Source: Escherichia phage vB_EcoM-UFV10. Taken from it: a stretch of 64,000 nt of DNA. The notes under the pieces are model-generated. The model made no database searches and was not told the DNA's origin. It saw nothing but the letters and a program-made list of their open reading frames with translations. This document shows, in pieces, positions 44,638 through 52,873 of this stretch (its first letter is position 1; each line of letters starts with the position of its first letter). Made by a program: the position numbers and the translations under genes. The stretch is taken from the sequence record OP555981.1; one strand, given 5' to 3'.

Positions 44638-44760
44638 GTCCCATCTCCATATCAATTAAGTCATTTATCGTTGGTTCATTATATACTGTTTCTTCATCAG
44701 TGTAAACCGGTTCTTCCGGCTCTGGCTCTACAGTTTCCCATCTAGCCGCCCACCAAGGTT

Positions 44761-45081
44761 TTATAGCGTAATCCATTCTCGTACTATCTGAGTTACTACA
44801 CGTTCACGGGGCTCGACTAGTTCAACAGTCGGAACTGCATAATACCAGTCAGAATGATAGGAACCTGACCGAGATTCATTTACAGCCACATGTACATTAT
44901 GTTTTGGACTAAAGTAAACACACTGACGATATTGGCATTTACCATCTTGCACCCAGTCTTCTATTTCGATAGGTTTAAGATAATCGGAAAAATCGAAATC
45001 ATAGTTTTCCGAAAATGCATCATGGTCTTCAATGATTTCGCTCAGAACTGCATCAACATCTAATTTATTTTCAATAGTCAT
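44761..45081 (-). CDS. hypothetical protein
   Basis: 106-aa ORF. Confidence 0.4.
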   Translation of the reverse strand: MTIENKLDVDAVLSEIIEDHDAFSENYDFDFSDYLKPIEIEDWVQDGKCQYRQCVYFSPKHNVHVAVNESRSGSYHSDWYYAVPTVELVEPRERVVTQIVREWITL

Positions 45082-45264
45082 TTTTCACCAATTAATTTCG
45101 CAATTTATTAAGTTCTTCATCATCAATCCAGGATTCTAATCCTGATGGCAGGGCACATTCAATTTCCCAAAGAAGTTCTTCAATTTTCTGAAGACGATCT
45201 AGTTCTTCGGCTGGAATAGTAACCATTGACGGAGCTCGTGATACATTAATATCGTAAATCATAT

Positions 45265-45480
45265 TTACCCCAATTTAACCATACAATCGCCGTATTTCCA
45301 CTTAGAAATAGACTTTTCACCATTAGAATAATAAACTTCGAGTTTAGCACGATTATTTTTAATTTGAATAACCTTTGCTGTCATCAAAGTTCCATACCCA
45401 TAATAAACTGCAACTTCATCACCTACATATACCGCGCTTCCGCGGTAATCATGGATATAATCAGTTCCTTCGAGAATCAT
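45265..45480 (-). CDS. hypothetical protein
   Basis: 71-aa ORF, ATGA coupling to nrdC. Confidence 0.4.
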   Translation of the reverse strand: MILEGTDYIHDYRGSAVYVGDEVAVYYGYGTLMTAKVIQIKNNRAKLEVYYSNGEKSISKWKYGDCMVKLG

Positions 45481-45740
45481 TTAAAGTATTCTCGCAGTTG
45501 GTCAAATCCACCAATATGACTTCCATCAGGAGCAAATACCTGAGGCATTGTCAAGCCGATTTGAGTATCACGACTTAGTTTAGTCAGAAGCTCAGCGATT
45601 TTCTCATCATCAAAAACACCTTTTTCCGGCATAATGTTGATAAATTCAAACGGCTGTTTCTTCACGGTCAAAAGACGTTTTGCATTATCACAATACACAC
45701 ATTTATGGATGTTGCTATCATAACCATATAATTTAAACAT
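45477..45740 (-). CDS. nrdC: phage thioredoxin/glutaredoxin
   Basis: 87 aa; CVYC active site; sequence close to remembered T4 NrdC. Confidence 0.8.
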   Translation of the reverse strand: MFKLYGYDSNIHKCVYCDNAKRLLTVKKQPFEFINIMPEKGVFDDEKIAELLTKLSRDTQIGLTMPQVFAPDGSHIGGFDQLREYFK

Positions 45741-45985: not shown

Positions 45986-46375
45986 TTAATCCAAAATATT
46001 ATTAGGCATTGGTTGAACACTCACAAGTTCTTTAAAGAACTCAGTAGAGTCAGGCAATTTAACCATTTCCGGAGCATGCTTACTGAATTTATGTTTACAT
46101 TGACGGCATTTATATTCAAGCTCTGGTTTACGCCAGTTAATCAATTGAACTTGTTCAGTACCGCATTCAGGGCAATTAGGAACGTTTTTAGAAGCTCTTT
46201 CACGTCGTTCAACCATAGCCATAATAGCATCCCATGCTGGAGGTTTAAAATCTAAATCGTCGCAGCCGTGAATCTTTCCACGCATTTCCATATCATCTTC
46301 CTCACCAGCCATAATAATTTTAATTAGACTAGAATTACTTGAAGCTGCAATGTCTTCTAATAAACGCTTTTTCAT
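45986..46375 (-). CDS. zinc-ribbon protein
   Basis: 129 aa; CPECGTEQ...CRQCKHKF. Confidence 0.45.
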
Positions 46376-47298
46376 TTCAATACCTCAATAGCATTACGTA
46401 AACCATTTGCTTTTGCGTTAAGAGATTTTAACAATTTGGTGTGTTCTGCAATTTGGGCTTCAACTTCAATCAAACGGGCATTGAGATATTCGCGTTCTTC
46501 TTTCATAGTATCATTCCCATGATTGGGTTTTGGTGCAGATTTAAATTCACTAGGGTCCTTTAACTTAATAACAAATTTAGTTTCAAACAGTGAAAGACCA
46601 TAATTCGTATTATCATCAAAGGATTTAACTACATCCATATTAGATAATAACTCATGCAAATTATAAGACAAAGAACTAATAGTTTCATTGTGTTTATTAG
46701 CTTCGCGTGGTTTCATATACGGAAGATTTTTATATATCTCATGCGGAGCACAAATGATAATTGACAATTCAAATTGTCCATTCTGGGACGATGGAGTGAA
46801 TTTAGCCGTAACCCAGTCTTTTACATTCACATTAATAGTACGGTTATCACCATGACAAAACAATCTACGAGAATGCTTAAAAAGCATATTCACGTTATTA
46901 TTGAATTCGTGTGAAAATTCACTGGCAAATTTTTCTTTACTATCTTTAGAAAACCATTCTTCTAAATAAGTTCTTTTCACGTCGTTAATAATATTAAATG
47001 TAACAACATTAGCATTTGATACATTAGTCTCAATGTAGCTTGGATACATAAATTTTTTAACATTATTAACAGCTATCACAGAAGATAGTAATCGGGAACG
47101 TTTGAACCACTCGAGCAAAGAACCAAGAGAATGTGAATACGCGTTTTGCGTATCTTTACAAATATGGTTTTCCCATCCAATATAGTCTAAAAAATCACGA
47201 AGAATATTATTGATTACTGCTCTGTGTCCTATCTGATAATTACGATGTTTAGTAATAAGACTGTCAAAATAATCAATATAATGTTTACGAGTTTTCAT
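46372..47298 (-). CDS. paralog family member 1 (C-terminal coiled coil)
   Basis: 308 aa; C-terminal heptad-like [42 protein letters not shown]. Confidence 0.5.
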   Translation of the reverse strand: MKTRKHYIDYFDSLITKHRNYQIGHRAVINNILRDFLDYIGWENHICKDTQNAYSHSLGSLLEWFKRSRLLSSVIAVNNVKKFMYPSYIETNVSNANVVTFNIINDVKRTYLEEWFSKDSKEKFASEFSHEFNNNVNMLFKHSRRLFCHGDNRTINVNVKDWVTAKFTPSSQNGQFELSIIICAPHEIYKNLPYMKPREANKHNETISSLSYNLHELLSNMDVVKSFDDNTNYGLSLFETKFVIKLKDPSEFKSAPKPNHGNDTMKEEREYLNARLIEVEAQIAEHTKLLKSLNAKANGLRNAIEVLK

Positions 47299-47352
47299 GT
47301 TCTTCTCACTTGGTTAATGATTTATACTCCGAGCCATCCTTGGCTTTAAATT

Positions 47353-48354
47353 TTACTTAATTAACTGTAAAGCTTGTTCAAGACGATCAAGACGATTAAC
47401 GGATTCTTCCCAAATCTTTTTAGCCTTCTCATATTCTTTCTGTGCTTTATTAGAAATTTCTAGAGCTCCTTTATAAGCTTTTTCTAATGCAATAATTTCT
47501 GGACGAATTTCTACCGGTTCAGGCGAATCATCAAGATTATCCATTAGTTCCTCAAGGGTAGTTTCTTCTTTAGGGGTATTCACAATTTCTTCGCATTTTT
47601 GTTGGTAAATTTCTTTATCAGTCGGTGAATACGCACATTTCACTTCACGAAGACTAACTACAATTTTGTATCCTTCCCAACCACACATATTCTTAAAAGG
47701 ATATGTATGAATATTTTCTACTGTTTCCATACAAAGTAATGCAGTCTCTAACTGACGAGTTATAGTGCTAGCAATTGAGAAAAATTTATTAATATTCTTT
47801 TGGTTAGCGTTTGGTGTAAAAAATCCATAATTCACAAAAATAGCTACTTTATTTTCGTCAAGCTCATATTCTTTTACGATAATCATATCAGAAGCCAAAG
47901 GATGAATTTGACGATAATCGCCATAACATAATTTAGAAGCTGATTTTAGAATTTGTCCTTTGAAAAGTCTGAAATTACTAATCCAACGACGAGTAAAAAT
48001 ATTCTCAGGGTCTTCTTTATTATTAAGATGATAAGAATTAACATCACCGAACCAATTGTATCCTACTACATTTTTAGTTCGTTTAATTTCTTTCCCAAAT
48101 TTACCAAGAATATCTCTGTTAACTAAATATGAAAGAAGACGAGACCCTTTAAAGGTTTCCTTAATATCATCTTTATCTGCACGACTAGAAATTTTATGAA
48201 CTTCATGAATAAATTTGCTGGAAGAAACAATGCTTGCATCAGTATTATTGAGCCATTGATTGATAATAGAAATAACACTATTCTGACTAGACATAGGTTT
48301 AACTTTATCATCAATAACGCTATTGAATGATTTGATATATTCGTTGCGAGTCAT
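47353..48354 (-). CDS. paralog family member 2 (C-terminal coiled coil)
   Basis: 333 aa from ATG MTRNEY behind GAGGAG; the track ATG is the G of the promoter -10; shares SRLLS motif with member 1. Confidence 0.5.
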   Translation of the reverse strand: MTRNEYIKSFNSVIDDKVKPMSSQNSVISIINQWLNNTDASIVSSSKFIHEVHKISSRADKDDIKETFKGSRLLSYLVNRDILGKFGKEIKRTKNVVGYNWFGDVNSYHLNNKEDPENIFTRRWISNFRLFKGQILKSASKLCYGDYRQIHPLASDMIIVKEYELDENKVAIFVNYGFFTPNANQKNINKFFSIASTITRQLETALLCMETVENIHTYPFKNMCGWEGYKIVVSLREVKCAYSPTDKEIYQQKCEEIVNTPKEETTLEELMDNLDDSPEPVEIRPEIIALEKAYKGALEISNKAQKEYEKAKKIWEESVNRLDRLEQALQLIK

Positions 48355-48383
48355 ATTAATCTCCTCAGTAGAAAGTAAGAACA

Positions 48384-48412
48384 TTATACCACATCCTTGT
48401 GGCGAAGTAAAC
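48384..48412 (-). promoter_or_regulatory. early promoter, near-duplicate of the one at 2418-2447
   Basis: minus strand GTTTAC-spacer with CCACAAGGATGTGG-TATAAT; 20-bp core identical to the rIIA.1 promoter. Confidence 0.55.
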
Positions 48413-49431
48413 TAGTTTAGTGCATTTAGTGCATTGTTCAATTTAGAACGTTGCTTTGTCAGATTTTGAACCCTTGACTGAGCTTGTTCTAACACCTTTT
48501 CAGCTTCTAGCACTTCATTGGTCGCTTTAATGAGTTCAGCATCTACTGCCTTAAGAGACTTCTCAATCGCGTCAGCGTGCCATTTTTCTACAGGTTTAAA
48601 ATTTGAATTTTCAGTAGGAAGAAAATTCACTTTATTAAATTTCCATGCATCTTTATTACCTGAGCTATACATCCAAAATTTAGGATCGTTTGATGAGCAA
48701 TTAGATAAATTTAAGTTATCTTGTACTTCCTGCTTTTTCTCTTGCGGGACTTCATCCTTTCTCAAAAAATCGTATTTAAATGAAACGATCATATCAAGTT
48801 CATACGTTGTTGTATGTTCCCAATTTCGCTCAAAATGAGGTAAAATCTTAGACTGAACAGCGGCAACAACATCCATATACTTAAATGCTTCTGTCAACTG
48901 TGATTTAAGGCATTCACAAATTGAAAGAGAATTTTTTGTATTAGGCTTAAAGCTAATTCGTGCAGTTCTATTATTTTCTTTTAACGGTCTTACTTCCATC
49001 TGAAGAGTATAACCATCAAATTTCAGGTTCTTTAAGTTAATGTCAGAACCTTTTAATCGACTAGCAGTAGACAAAATTTGCTTTAATTGTTTACGGAATA
49101 AAGCAATAAATCTCCATTCAAGACGATAATGATTTGGATTAAAAAATCCTGTTGATAAATCAACCTTACTCTGACCAACGCCTTGAACAAATAGAGGATT
49201 TTTATAATCAATAGTTTTACAGAAATCGGTGAGCTGCTCACGAGCAGTCATTTGTGTAATATATCCCGCTTTACTAAAATGACGTAACCATTCACTGCTA
49301 TTCATATACTTAAAGTGAATGGAACTATTAACTCTATCAGGGTCTAAATTATTTTGGCACAAAAATGTCATAACATTACGGGTATAGCTAGCATTACGAA
49401 CCATATCTTCAATTTGAGAACGAGTTTTCAT
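48412..49431 (-). CDS. paralog family member 3 (C-terminal coiled coil)
   Basis: 339 aa; N-terminus MKTRSQIEDM resembles member 1 MKTRKHYIDY; C-terminal coiled coil. Confidence 0.5.
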   Translation of the reverse strand: MKTRSQIEDMVRNASYTRNVMTFLCQNNLDPDRVNSSIHFKYMNSSEWLRHFSKAGYITQMTAREQLTDFCKTIDYKNPLFVQGVGQSKVDLSTGFFNPNHYRLEWRFIALFRKQLKQILSTASRLKGSDINLKNLKFDGYTLQMEVRPLKENNRTARISFKPNTKNSLSICECLKSQLTEAFKYMDVVAAVQSKILPHFERNWEHTTTYELDMIVSFKYDFLRKDEVPQEKKQEVQDNLNLSNCSSNDPKFWMYSSGNKDAWKFNKVNFLPTENSNFKPVEKWHADAIEKSLKAVDAELIKATNEVLEAEKVLEQAQSRVQNLTKQRSKLNNALNALN

Positions 49432-49439
49432 AGTGTTCC

Positions 49440-50327
49440 TTAAGATTTAAGTAAATCAACAATTTTAATTAATTTTTCACGCTCAGATTTAGCTTTACTA
49501 CTCAATCCAGATAGTCTGAAAATTTCATCGTCATACTGTTGAATAGAAATATTTAGCTCTTCAATTTGCTTATTAAAATAATCAATTTGCTCAGAATGTT
49601 TTTCATTACTGCGAACTGGTATAGGGTTTGTAGGCAATTTAGTTGAACTAGATTCATCCGGGCGATAAATTAAAATACAACTTGAACCAATTGGACATTT
49701 TGCACCAGATGAATATTCTAATGTTCCGGCTTCTTTTAAAACTTCAAAAGCTAAACAGAGATGATGCCCCATATTAACATAATCTGTAGAGCGAGCTCTG
49801 ATGTAATAATCATCTCCGCGAATACTAAATTTAAAGCATTTAAGGTCTTCTGTATTATTGGTCTTAAAAATCATTTGTTTATCTAGACCTTTAGCTAATC
49901 GAGCGCCTAATGCTAATAATCGTCGTTGATTTTCCCACAAATCTGCGATCATTTGGTCAAATGATAATTTCGGCATTAGTCGACCATAAAGGTCATATCC
50001 TTTATTATAATTACGAAGGATTTCACTCGCGTTAATACGAGACAATGCTCCAATTTTATTAAGGGCTTTCATAATGCGATTAGATAAACCCATTCCAGAC
50101 CCGTTTGTTCGCTGCAAATGTTTTTCTAATCCAAATCCAATATCAACTTTAAACTTATCTAAAATTTCTGCATGAACATCTCTGTCAATAACATTCAAAT
50201 CCAAAGTTGGGTTAAATCTATGAAAAAATTTATCTGGCTCTCCACGACGAAGTACAGTCCATTCATTCATTTTTTTATTAACTAAAGATTTAATTACTGT
50301 ATTGACATTATTAATTACTACTGACAT
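49440..50327 (-). CDS. paralog family member 4 (C-terminal coiled coil)
   Basis: 295 aa from ATG behind GAGGAA (track start is TTG); C-terminal coiled coil. Confidence 0.45.
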   Translation of the reverse strand: MSVVINNVNTVIKSLVNKKMNEWTVLRRGEPDKFFHRFNPTLDLNVIDRDVHAEILDKFKVDIGFGLEKHLQRTNGSGMGLSNRIMKALNKIGALSRINASEILRNYNKGYDLYGRLMPKLSFDQMIADLWENQRRLLALGARLAKGLDKQMIFKTNNTEDLKCFKFSIRGDDYYIRARSTDYVNMGHHLCLAFEVLKEAGTLEYSSGAKCPIGSSCILIYRPDESSSTKLPTNPIPVRSNEKHSEQIDYFNKQIEELNISIQQYDDEIFRLSGLSSKAKSEREKLIKIVDLLKS

Positions 50328-50797: not shown

Positions 50798-51325
50798 TTA
50801 TGCGAGTACCGTCTTTAACCGTTCTTCAAACTTCCGAAGAGTATTCTGGCGTTCAGCTCTTTGCTTTTTGTAAGTTTCAATACGCTCTGAAATGAGAGTG
50901 TATCGTTCATTTACTGATTCTTTCATAAAATCAGGAATTTCACGAGAAGCTTTAATCTCGTCAAATTTATCAATAACAGCTTGCTCTTCAGCAATTAAGT
51001 TATCATACATCAAAATATCTTTCTTGATGAACTCAATATCTTCTTGAGTTACACGAGATAATTTAAATGCTTTATCCTTTTTGTACTGTTCGTTAGTATC
51101 ACGAGACCAGTGTAATGTACGATTTTTATTCGTATTCTTATAAATTTCTACAATACCAATATCATCAATAATAACGATCCAATTCCAACGGGATTTGTAA
51201 ATTTGTCCTCCATCAACTGTGATTTCACCTCCGATTGAGATGTCATTAAAGAACTTGCTTTGTGCTTCTGATTTAAATTTACCATCGTTGTAATTTACCA
51301 AGTTGAAAATATCTTTAGCGTTCAT
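50798..51325 (-). CDS. hypothetical protein
   Basis: 175 aa from ATG MNAKDIF; track extension is translated leader. Confidence 0.45.
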   Translation of the reverse strand: MNAKDIFNLVNYNDGKFKSEAQSKFFNDISIGGEITVDGGQIYKSRWNWIVIIDDIGIVEIYKNTNKNRTLHWSRDTNEQYKKDKAFKLSRVTQEDIEFIKKDILMYDNLIAEEQAVIDKFDEIKASREIPDFMKESVNERYTLISERIETYKKQRAERQNTLRKFEERLKTVLA

Positions 51326-52822: not shown

Positions 52823-52853
52823 TGTTTTGTGAAAAAATTTTTGAAATAAAAAA

Positions 52854-52871
52854 GGGAGCCCGAAGGCTCCC
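52854..52871 (-). terminator. UUCG-tetraloop hairpin after the nucleotidyltransferase gene
   Basis: GGGAGCC-cgaa-GGCTCCC. Confidence 0.55.
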
Positions 52872-52873
52872 TA

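Follow-up and report, generated by a model that had tools for sequence, protein, structure and literature searches.

The window analysed here, a 64,000-nucleotide stretch of Escherichia phage vB_EcoM-UFV10 (OP555981.1) from a genome of the Tequatrovirus (T4-like) type, carries an array of four consecutive genes on the minus strand, nrdC.3 (46372-47298, 308 amino acids), nrdC.4 (47353-48354, 333 amino acids), nrdC.5 (48412-49431, 339 amino acids) and nrdC.6 (49440-50327, 295 amino acids), which together span about 4 kb and take their names from an annotated relative and from the T4 reference. The array is flanked on one side by the genes from nrdC (45477-45740) to nrdC.2 and on the other by nrdC.7 to nrdC.11, among which nrdC.10 is of the AAA type. 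An earlier inspection of the letters alone (the sequence-only reading) had singled out these four open reading frames (ORFs) between nrdC and an ATPase cluster as divergent paralogs that end in a coiled coil. Its coordinates, lengths, strand and quoted tail sequences are all correct, and the placement holds as well, the array lying between nrdC and nrdC.10. When a 3,977-base query was used in megablast, Escherichia phage vB_EcoM-UFV09 was found to be 100% identical, and most of the 506 phage records matched showed 90-95% identity.

The window's nrdC.5 is the ortholog of T4 NrdC.5, with 91.8% amino acid identity and the same neighbours. It matches the Pfam family DUF7235 (PF23882) over residues 1-339 with 396.9 bits (E 9e-119; the gathering score is 30 bits) and belongs to PHROG 2351. 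The products of nrdC.3 and nrdC.4 each match PHROG 1435 over their full length, and nrdC.6, the most divergent member, falls into PHROG 2257 and PF26899. Since nrdC.3, nrdC.4 and nrdC.6 stay below the threshold of the DUF7235 model, they are superfamily relatives and not members of DUF7235. In many GenBank records the products of nrdC.3 to nrdC.6 are named 'thioredoxin'. We reject a thioredoxin or glutaredoxin identity for the four, as they show no match to a thioredoxin-family model in Pfam or NCBIfam and no corresponding fold match; the label was evidently inherited from the name 'nrdC.x'. In many phage records it has spread over all nrdC.x genes (nrdC.1 to nrdC.11), even to the AAA-type nrdC.10, and in one record a neighbouring gene is called 'Mur ligase domain-containing protein'.

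Judging from profile comparisons, nrdC.3 to nrdC.6 are divergent full-length paralogs of one family. Pairwise BLASTP among the four aligns nrdC.3 with nrdC.4 at 25.6% identity over 168 residues (E 8e-4) and nrdC.4 with nrdC.5 at E 0.09, and finds no match for nrdC.6; the identity of nrdC.3, nrdC.4 and nrdC.6 to nrdC.5 is only about 15-25%. Small family alignments were built from relatives in Mosigvirus, Dhakavirus and Gaprivervirus phages and compared using hhalign. Here, the nrdC.3 and nrdC.4 families matched each other with 97.8% probability (E 7e-13), and both matched nrdC.5 in colinear, nearly full-length alignments (P 2e-4 for nrdC.3 and 7e-5 for nrdC.4), while these family-by-family comparisons gave no signal for nrdC.6. 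The weak pairwise scores, the silence of nrdC.6 at both levels and the fact that PHROGs and Pfam split the genes into three or four families would all be in line with the view that the four proteins have nothing in common except a low-complexity coiled-coil tail, and that their heads are encoded by unrelated genes that happen to be adjacent. However, this view becomes highly improbable once larger profiles are used. With extra relatives added, the nrdC.3/4 profile matched that of nrdC.5 and the Karamvirus type with 97.9% probability (P 6e-13) over 274 colinear columns, and the merged nrdC.3/4/5 profile matched the nrdC.6 family with 94.1% probability (P 1.3e-7) over 263 colinear columns. When the comparison was restricted to the heads by removing the tails, the latter match still reached 88.4% (P 2.8e-6), whereas reversed-sequence controls for the profile comparisons gave P values of 0.24-0.33 and the family of the neighbouring nrdC.8 gave 0.08-0.3.

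Two further observations argue against unrelated heads. In the joint alignment, the motifs M(K)TR..EYI, FK.SRLLS, F..FR....LLK.A.R, VN.K, F.P..K and L..AL..MD.VE, followed by the tail, occur in identical order across all four proteins. Furthermore, a hidden Markov model (HMM) of the nrdC.6 family, run against a database of 150 ORFs, found a 329-residue protein of the Karamvirus KMB17 (E 1.1e-6) and gp94 of Yersinia phage fHe-Yen9-01 (E 1.1e-4), and both of these proteins from other genera also match the nrdC.3/4/5 profile. The sequence-only reading was therefore right about divergent paralogs, the homology running along the whole length, and the shared motifs that it noted (MKTR, SRLLS and MDVV) are real and lie at colinear positions; its description of the heads as largely unrelated does not stand, because the profiles, other than BLASTP, are significant beyond the tails. 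A word-indexed homolog search with the merged nrdC.3/4/5 alignment returned nrdC.5-type proteins only and no homologs of nrdC.3 or nrdC.4. A search for DNA-level repeats, as recent duplication or gene conversion would leave them, found nothing in the array beyond short matches (14-21 nt); two of these encode the MKTR and MDVV motifs that the proteins have in common. The lack of remaining repeats implies that the duplications are old.

The kinship with nrdC.5 is what links the array to phage defence. The sequence-only reading could name no characterised T4 function for these genes, but T4 nrdC.5 has been found to counteract Dsr1 (Srikant, Guegler and Laub, eLife 2022; PMC9391042), a NAD (nicotinamide adenine dinucleotide)-depleting immune protein of the SIR2-domain type. 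In that work, a T4 clone with compensatory deletions was unable to plate on E. coli ECOR17, and it plated again when dsr1 was deleted in ECOR17. Cloned dsr1 was protective in MG1655, and T4 nrdC.5 expressed from a plasmid restored plating on cells carrying Dsr1. The T4 clone that had lost nrdC.5 by deletion still plated on MG1655, and nrdC.5 was described as an early gene (PMC9391042). The sensor domain of Dsr1 is common to Avs7, and the major capsid protein was identified as the trigger for a Drexlerviridae phage (2026 Nature, PMC13581612). An anti-defence role, as the sequence-only reading had suggested for the array, is thus reasonable because of the published activity of T4 nrdC.5; for nrdC.3, nrdC.4 and nrdC.6 we infer it. 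In the parts read of the literature naming nrdC.3 to nrdC.6, leaving aside a paper on CRISPR-Cas9 and T4 DNA modification, no mechanism, structure or paralog relation is given.

When 1.84 billion representative proteins were searched exhaustively with a profile, 26 of them matched at E <= 0.001. Of the full-length matches that were examined, most are of the nrdC.3/4/5 type, several are new distant full-length relatives, and at least three (P0195, P0200 and P0202) are apparently spurious or chimeric. As far as can be judged from these searches, the family is found almost only in T4-like phages (Straboviridae). Compared across T-even genomes and beyond, the locus near nrdC carries 1 to 4 copies in differing combinations in several T4-like genera and in Acinetobacter phages, with natural deletions. 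The T4 type (Tequatrovirus) has all four members in the order nrdC.6, nrdC.5, nrdC.4 and nrdC.3. RB69 (Mosigvirus) has three (nrdC.6, nrdC.5 and nrdC.3) and is without nrdC.4, and ESCO47 (Mosigvirus) has two. Three members are likewise present in JS98 and dhaeg (Dhakavirus) and in VR26 (Gaprivervirus), namely nrdC.6, an nrdC.5-like gene and nrdC.4, without nrdC.3. fHe-Yen9-01 (Tegunavirus) carries two members, and KMB17 (Karamvirus) and PKO111 (Jiaodavirus) carry one each; the PKO111 member, an unannotated 324-residue ORF of this Klebsiella phage (NC_031095; L011 13148-14122), is a clear one (HMM E 1.3e-17) with a heptad tail. The Acinetobacter phage Acj61 has one clear member, p120, beside nrdC (HMM E 6.6e-8), and the adjoining p121 is a candidate (HMM E 0.035). 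In the Aeromonas phage AhMtk13a, no family member was found at the locus around nrdC.10.

The array has also been rearranged internally. In Salmonella phage Manna, which has two copies and has lost nrdC.5, one gene (Manna_094; L002 6215-7252) fuses an nrdC.6 head in frame to an nrdC.4 tail, with a (D/E)EI microhomology at the junction. A metagenomic protein (P0056) joins residues 145-271 of nrdC.5 to residues 134-308 of nrdC.3, and nrdC.6 of Shigella phage Sf25 (P0079) contains an internal tandem duplication of 83 residues. Taken together, the copy number of 1 to 4, the natural deletions and the viable T4 deletion clone mark these as accessory, dispensable genes.

Each protein begins with a predicted alpha/beta head (about 230-270 residues), continues with a flexible linker of low complexity and ends in an amphipathic heptad helix that is 40-60 residues long. 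For the tails, we used a simple a/d score on the last 35 residues and ranked the proteins among the 75 ORFs of at least 100 amino acids in the window. NrdC.5 ranks first (score 0.82), nrdC.3 second (0.78), nrdC.4 fourth (0.64) and nrdC.6 seventh. AlphaFold2 predicts a long C-terminal helix for nrdC.5 (residues 281-339; 48415-48591, minus strand), of which 281-338 are modelled as helix with a predicted local distance difference test score (pLDDT) of about 90, and a helix-turn-helix for nrdC.6 (residues 242-294; 49446-49604, minus strand), with helices at 242-271 and 277-294 behind a low-confidence linker at 226-241. The helices of nrdC.3 (about residues 264-308; 46375-46509, minus strand) and nrdC.4 (about residues 288-333; 47356-47493, minus strand) are predicted, the former from heptad pattern and alignment and the latter from its sequence. 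Heptad tails are also present in the relatives from Acinetobacter, Karamvirus, Jiaodavirus and Tegunavirus phages. The heptad-like helix that had been reported at the end of all four is thus borne out. An end motif, L..A[IL]..L[KN], occurs in the form L..[AIV][ILVM]..[LIV][LIV]?[KN].?$ in just these four among the window ORFs of at least 60 amino acids, though it was derived post hoc from the sequences and has descriptive value only.

The description of the tail as a constant C-terminal module needs to be divided. Between paralogs, the tails are alike only in the heptad pattern and in the last ~10 residues. Within orthologous groups, however, the tail is the best or near-best conserved segment: across genera, the last 28 residues of nrdC.3 are 87% conserved, as compared to 42-63% in the middle of the protein; in nrdC.4 the values are 58-79% for the tail and 27-51% for the head; and in nrdC.6, residues 241-280 reach 65%, as compared to 18-25% in the N-terminal and 161-240 segments.

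This conservation, which includes surface positions, together with the heptad pattern and similar terminal motif of all four proteins and with the adjacency and probable co-expression of their genes, would suit an arrangement in which the tails assemble the four into one hetero-oligomer, or attach all of them to a common partner, so that they work together as one machine. The neighbouring nrdC.8, which ends in such a helix too and was found in 6/6 enterobacterial relatives checked, would also fit in here. But the copies range from 1 to 4 in differing combinations (RB69, JS98, VR26, dhaeg, ESCO47, Manna, Karamvirus), and this variable copy number and the natural deletions argue against an obligate joint assembly. 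Moreover, nrdC.5 supplied alone from a plasmid rescues the T4 deletion clone (PMC9391042), and the tail sequences of the paralogs differ at most positions. We therefore consider a joint machine unlikely and do not favour the common docking partner that the sequence-only reading had proposed.

The gene nrdC.8 itself (50798-51325, minus strand, 175 amino acids) has a strong terminal heptad helix (score 0.72, rank 3 of 75) and lies at or near the array in the six relatives, directly adjoining it in five. It was considered as a fifth member and rejected, as it shows no profile similarity to the nrdC.3 to nrdC.6 family (P 0.08-0.6). Possibly it is a partner of the array proteins, or else an unrelated coiled-coil protein.

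With respect to the heads, structure prediction and fold search were successful in part: nrdC.6 could be modelled and resembles phage relatives, but the head of nrdC.5 failed. The AlphaFold2 model of nrdC.6 (pLDDT 76, predicted template modelling score 0.65) has a helical N-terminal part, a beta-hairpin (165-178), a helix (186-199), two strands, the linker at 226-241 and the C-terminal helical hairpin. Among the BFVD models, it matches uncharacterised proteins of 300-335 amino acids from T4-like phages of Enterobacter, Pectobacterium and Acinetobacter (Foldseek E 5e-7 to 3e-4). One of these relatives comes from a family with a sequence match to nrdC.5, and a 304-residue Acj61 protein, probably p121, is matched at Foldseek E 2.9e-4. 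A PDB sequence search with nrdC.5 and with the nrdC.3/4/5 and nrdC.6 profiles gave no chain at E <= 0.1 (best E 0.2), and there is no significant PDB fold match for the family, which is without a solved structure and for which Pfam gives no function. NCBIfam has nothing for the four, and PADLOC-DB yields no family at E <= 0.1 for these genes or nrdC.8. Accordingly, neither Pfam nor the PDB sequence and fold searches point to an ordinary housekeeping homolog, in agreement with what the sequence-only reading would require.

We propose that the four are ancient paralogs of one T4-like phage family that act as dispensable, probably early counter-defence proteins, in which the head binds an immune protein and the tail oligomerises, and we put the probability of this at roughly 0.55. 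In such a mechanism, the tail would oligomerise each paralog, probably with itself, and the oligomer would thereby offer at least two heads for binding to an immune protein of the host. The bound immune protein would be kept from firing once late phage proteins, such as the capsid protein, appear. For nrdC.5 the immune target would be Dsr1, and nrdC.3, nrdC.4 and nrdC.6 may direct the common scaffold at different host factors or at variants of the immune receptor. A bolder and rather doubtful version is that the family constitutes a new structural class of modular immune antagonists, in which exchangeable heads sit on a coiled-coil oligomerisation tail and each paralog blocks a different capsid-sensing receptor of the Avs7/Dsr1 type or another protein-sensing receptor. 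If so, copy number (1 to 4) and allele content, including the two nrdC.3 classes and head/tail hybrids, would set the host range of T4-like phages.

Several points weigh against our proposal. The defence link is experimental for nrdC.5 alone and comes from a single complementation experiment, in which the T4 allele was used (91.8% identity to the window gene), and both direct binding of NrdC.5 to Dsr1 and oligomerisation through the tail are steps that we infer. It may also be that these are host-takeover or phage-physiology proteins, acting for instance on the nucleoid, the ribosome or nucleotide metabolism, and that nrdC.5 rescues Dsr1-restricted infection indirectly; the plating results (PMC9391042) can be set against it, and we hold it to be improbable. 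The head of nrdC.5, modelled from an 18-sequence alignment, is unusable (pLDDT 45), and the link of nrdC.6 to the family consists of profile probabilities of ~90-94% and a transitive structural match, with no decisive single score. Furthermore, nrdC.6 is 95-99% conserved within Tequatrovirus, which is more like a conserved than a fast-moving function. Finally, the ratio of nonsynonymous to synonymous substitution rates (dN/dS) between window and T4 is 0.16-0.25 for the array, by a crude estimate, and shows none of the positive selection across whole genes that arms-race proteins often display.

A dN/dS of this size points to purifying selection, and it qualifies the earlier description of the family as diversifying, which is backed by the extreme divergence between paralogs and between genera and by the two allele classes of nrdC.3. 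In Tequatrovirus, nrdC.3 falls into two sharply separate classes with about 90% and about 60% identity to the window gene; some 139 records reach 90% identity or more, and some 356 lie at 60-62%. Around both classes the flanking DNA is ~95% identical, and the coiled-coil tail is near-identical in the two. Identity to T4 is about 90% for nrdC.3, nrdC.4 and nrdC.5, 97% for nrdC.6 and 96-100% for most flanking genes, with the exceptions of nrdC.7 (90%) and nrdC.2 (78%). The synonymous divergence (dS) from T4 is about 0.2 in the array and 0.04-0.15 in its neighbours. From the sequences, this looks like a mosaic exchange of old alleles under purifying selection and not like rapid positive selection.

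The surroundings vary, too, as seen at nrdC.2 (45986-46375, minus strand) and in the region 44700-45480. The stretch from pin to nrdC.2 varies as much as the array, and nrdC.2, which has a zinc-ribbon signature, encodes 129 amino acids as compared to 104 in T4. Near the array lie further genes directed against the host, in line with our counter-defence proposal: pin encodes a Lon inhibitor and gp49.2 is an inhibitor of OLD (PMC13096335). T4 gp49.3 has no counterpart in the window, the best match covering 23 residues.

In comparison to known systems, the closest case is T4 NrdC.5 itself, of which the gene at 48412-49431 is the ortholog and nrdC.3, nrdC.4 and nrdC.6 are distant paralogs. Its anti-Dsr1 activity is known for the T4 allele, by genetics (PMC9391042), whereas the window allele is known from its sequence. 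A working model for the action of NrdC.5 on Dsr1 is offered by DSAD1, a phage-encoded inhibitor that binds directly to the sirtuin defence protein DSR2 (PMC10973363, PMC10981675), and which thus also opposes a SIR2-domain, NAD-depleting defence. The two differ in that the target of DSAD1 is DSR2 rather than Dsr1, and in that binding is direct for DSAD1 and presumed for NrdC.5. The PDB searches, for which the nrdC.5 sequence and the two family profiles (nrdC.3/4/5 and nrdC.6) served as queries but neither nrdC.3 nor nrdC.4 by itself, revealed no relation to DSAD1, no chain being found at E <= 0.1.

The array further resembles the dmd-tifA-adfA 'anti-TA island' (TA, toxin-antitoxin) of T4 (PMC9391042) and the anti-OLD gene gp49.2 (PMC13096335), which are dispensable early genes of small to medium size, each tuned to one defence, and which share with it the variation between close relatives and the proneness to deletion and amplification. 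Unlike in these cases, the neighbours in the array are mutually homologous and form one family in 1 to 4 copies. Its members, at ~300 amino acids and with a coiled-coil tail, are also unusually large for anti-defence proteins.

The genes themselves were already known; what appears to be new is that all four, with their relatives in Straboviridae, form one family with the anti-Dsr1 protein. In the best-studied virulent phage, these four genes are still labelled 'hypothetical' or, wrongly, 'thioredoxin', and the family link turns three orphan genes into concrete counter-defence candidates. The array also provides a comparative series for the action of NrdC.5 on Dsr1, with one scaffold, varied heads, natural head/tail hybrids and two allele classes. 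Since Tequatrovirus phages are common in phage therapy and biocontrol, the copies carried by a phage may help predict which defence-rich strains of E. coli, Shigella and Salmonella it can infect.

With respect to expression, the gap between nrdC.5 and nrdC.4 contains a putative T4-early-type promoter on the minus strand (48383-48411; GTTTAC, 17 nt, TGGTATAAT), identified as a near-consensus match only. It is followed by a GAGGAG ribosome-binding site within 48355-48380, directly upstream of the nrdC.4 ATG at 48354, such that the alternative start, which would give an nrdC.4 protein of 343 amino acids, falls inside the promoter. Such a promoter upstream of nrdC.4 is consistent with nrdC.5 having been described as early (PMC9391042), and the array genes are probably expressed early.

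Two records of family members deviate at the tail. In RB69 NrdC.5 (P0058; L005 7974-8876), the last ~50 residues are not coil-like, whereas other Mosigvirus orthologs end in ...LQLQYSKLFNAMNALKS, and the RB69 record looks as if it carried a frameshift. In the T4 reference NC_000866, nrdC.6 (L008 9001-9828) is annotated with 275 amino acids and is covered by tblastn in two pieces, and is therefore frameshifted near the C-terminus relative to the window and most relatives; the terminal helix would thereby be lost. In the window, at 52853-52872 on the minus strand, a strong hairpin rich in GC, with a T run behind it (AGGGAGCCTTCGGGCTCCCT TTTTTATTTC), probably marks the end of a transcript. It lies inside the listed 378-residue ORF of nrdC.10, and the true nrdC.10 start is therefore expected downstream of it, giving a protein of about 322-325 amino acids, as in T4.

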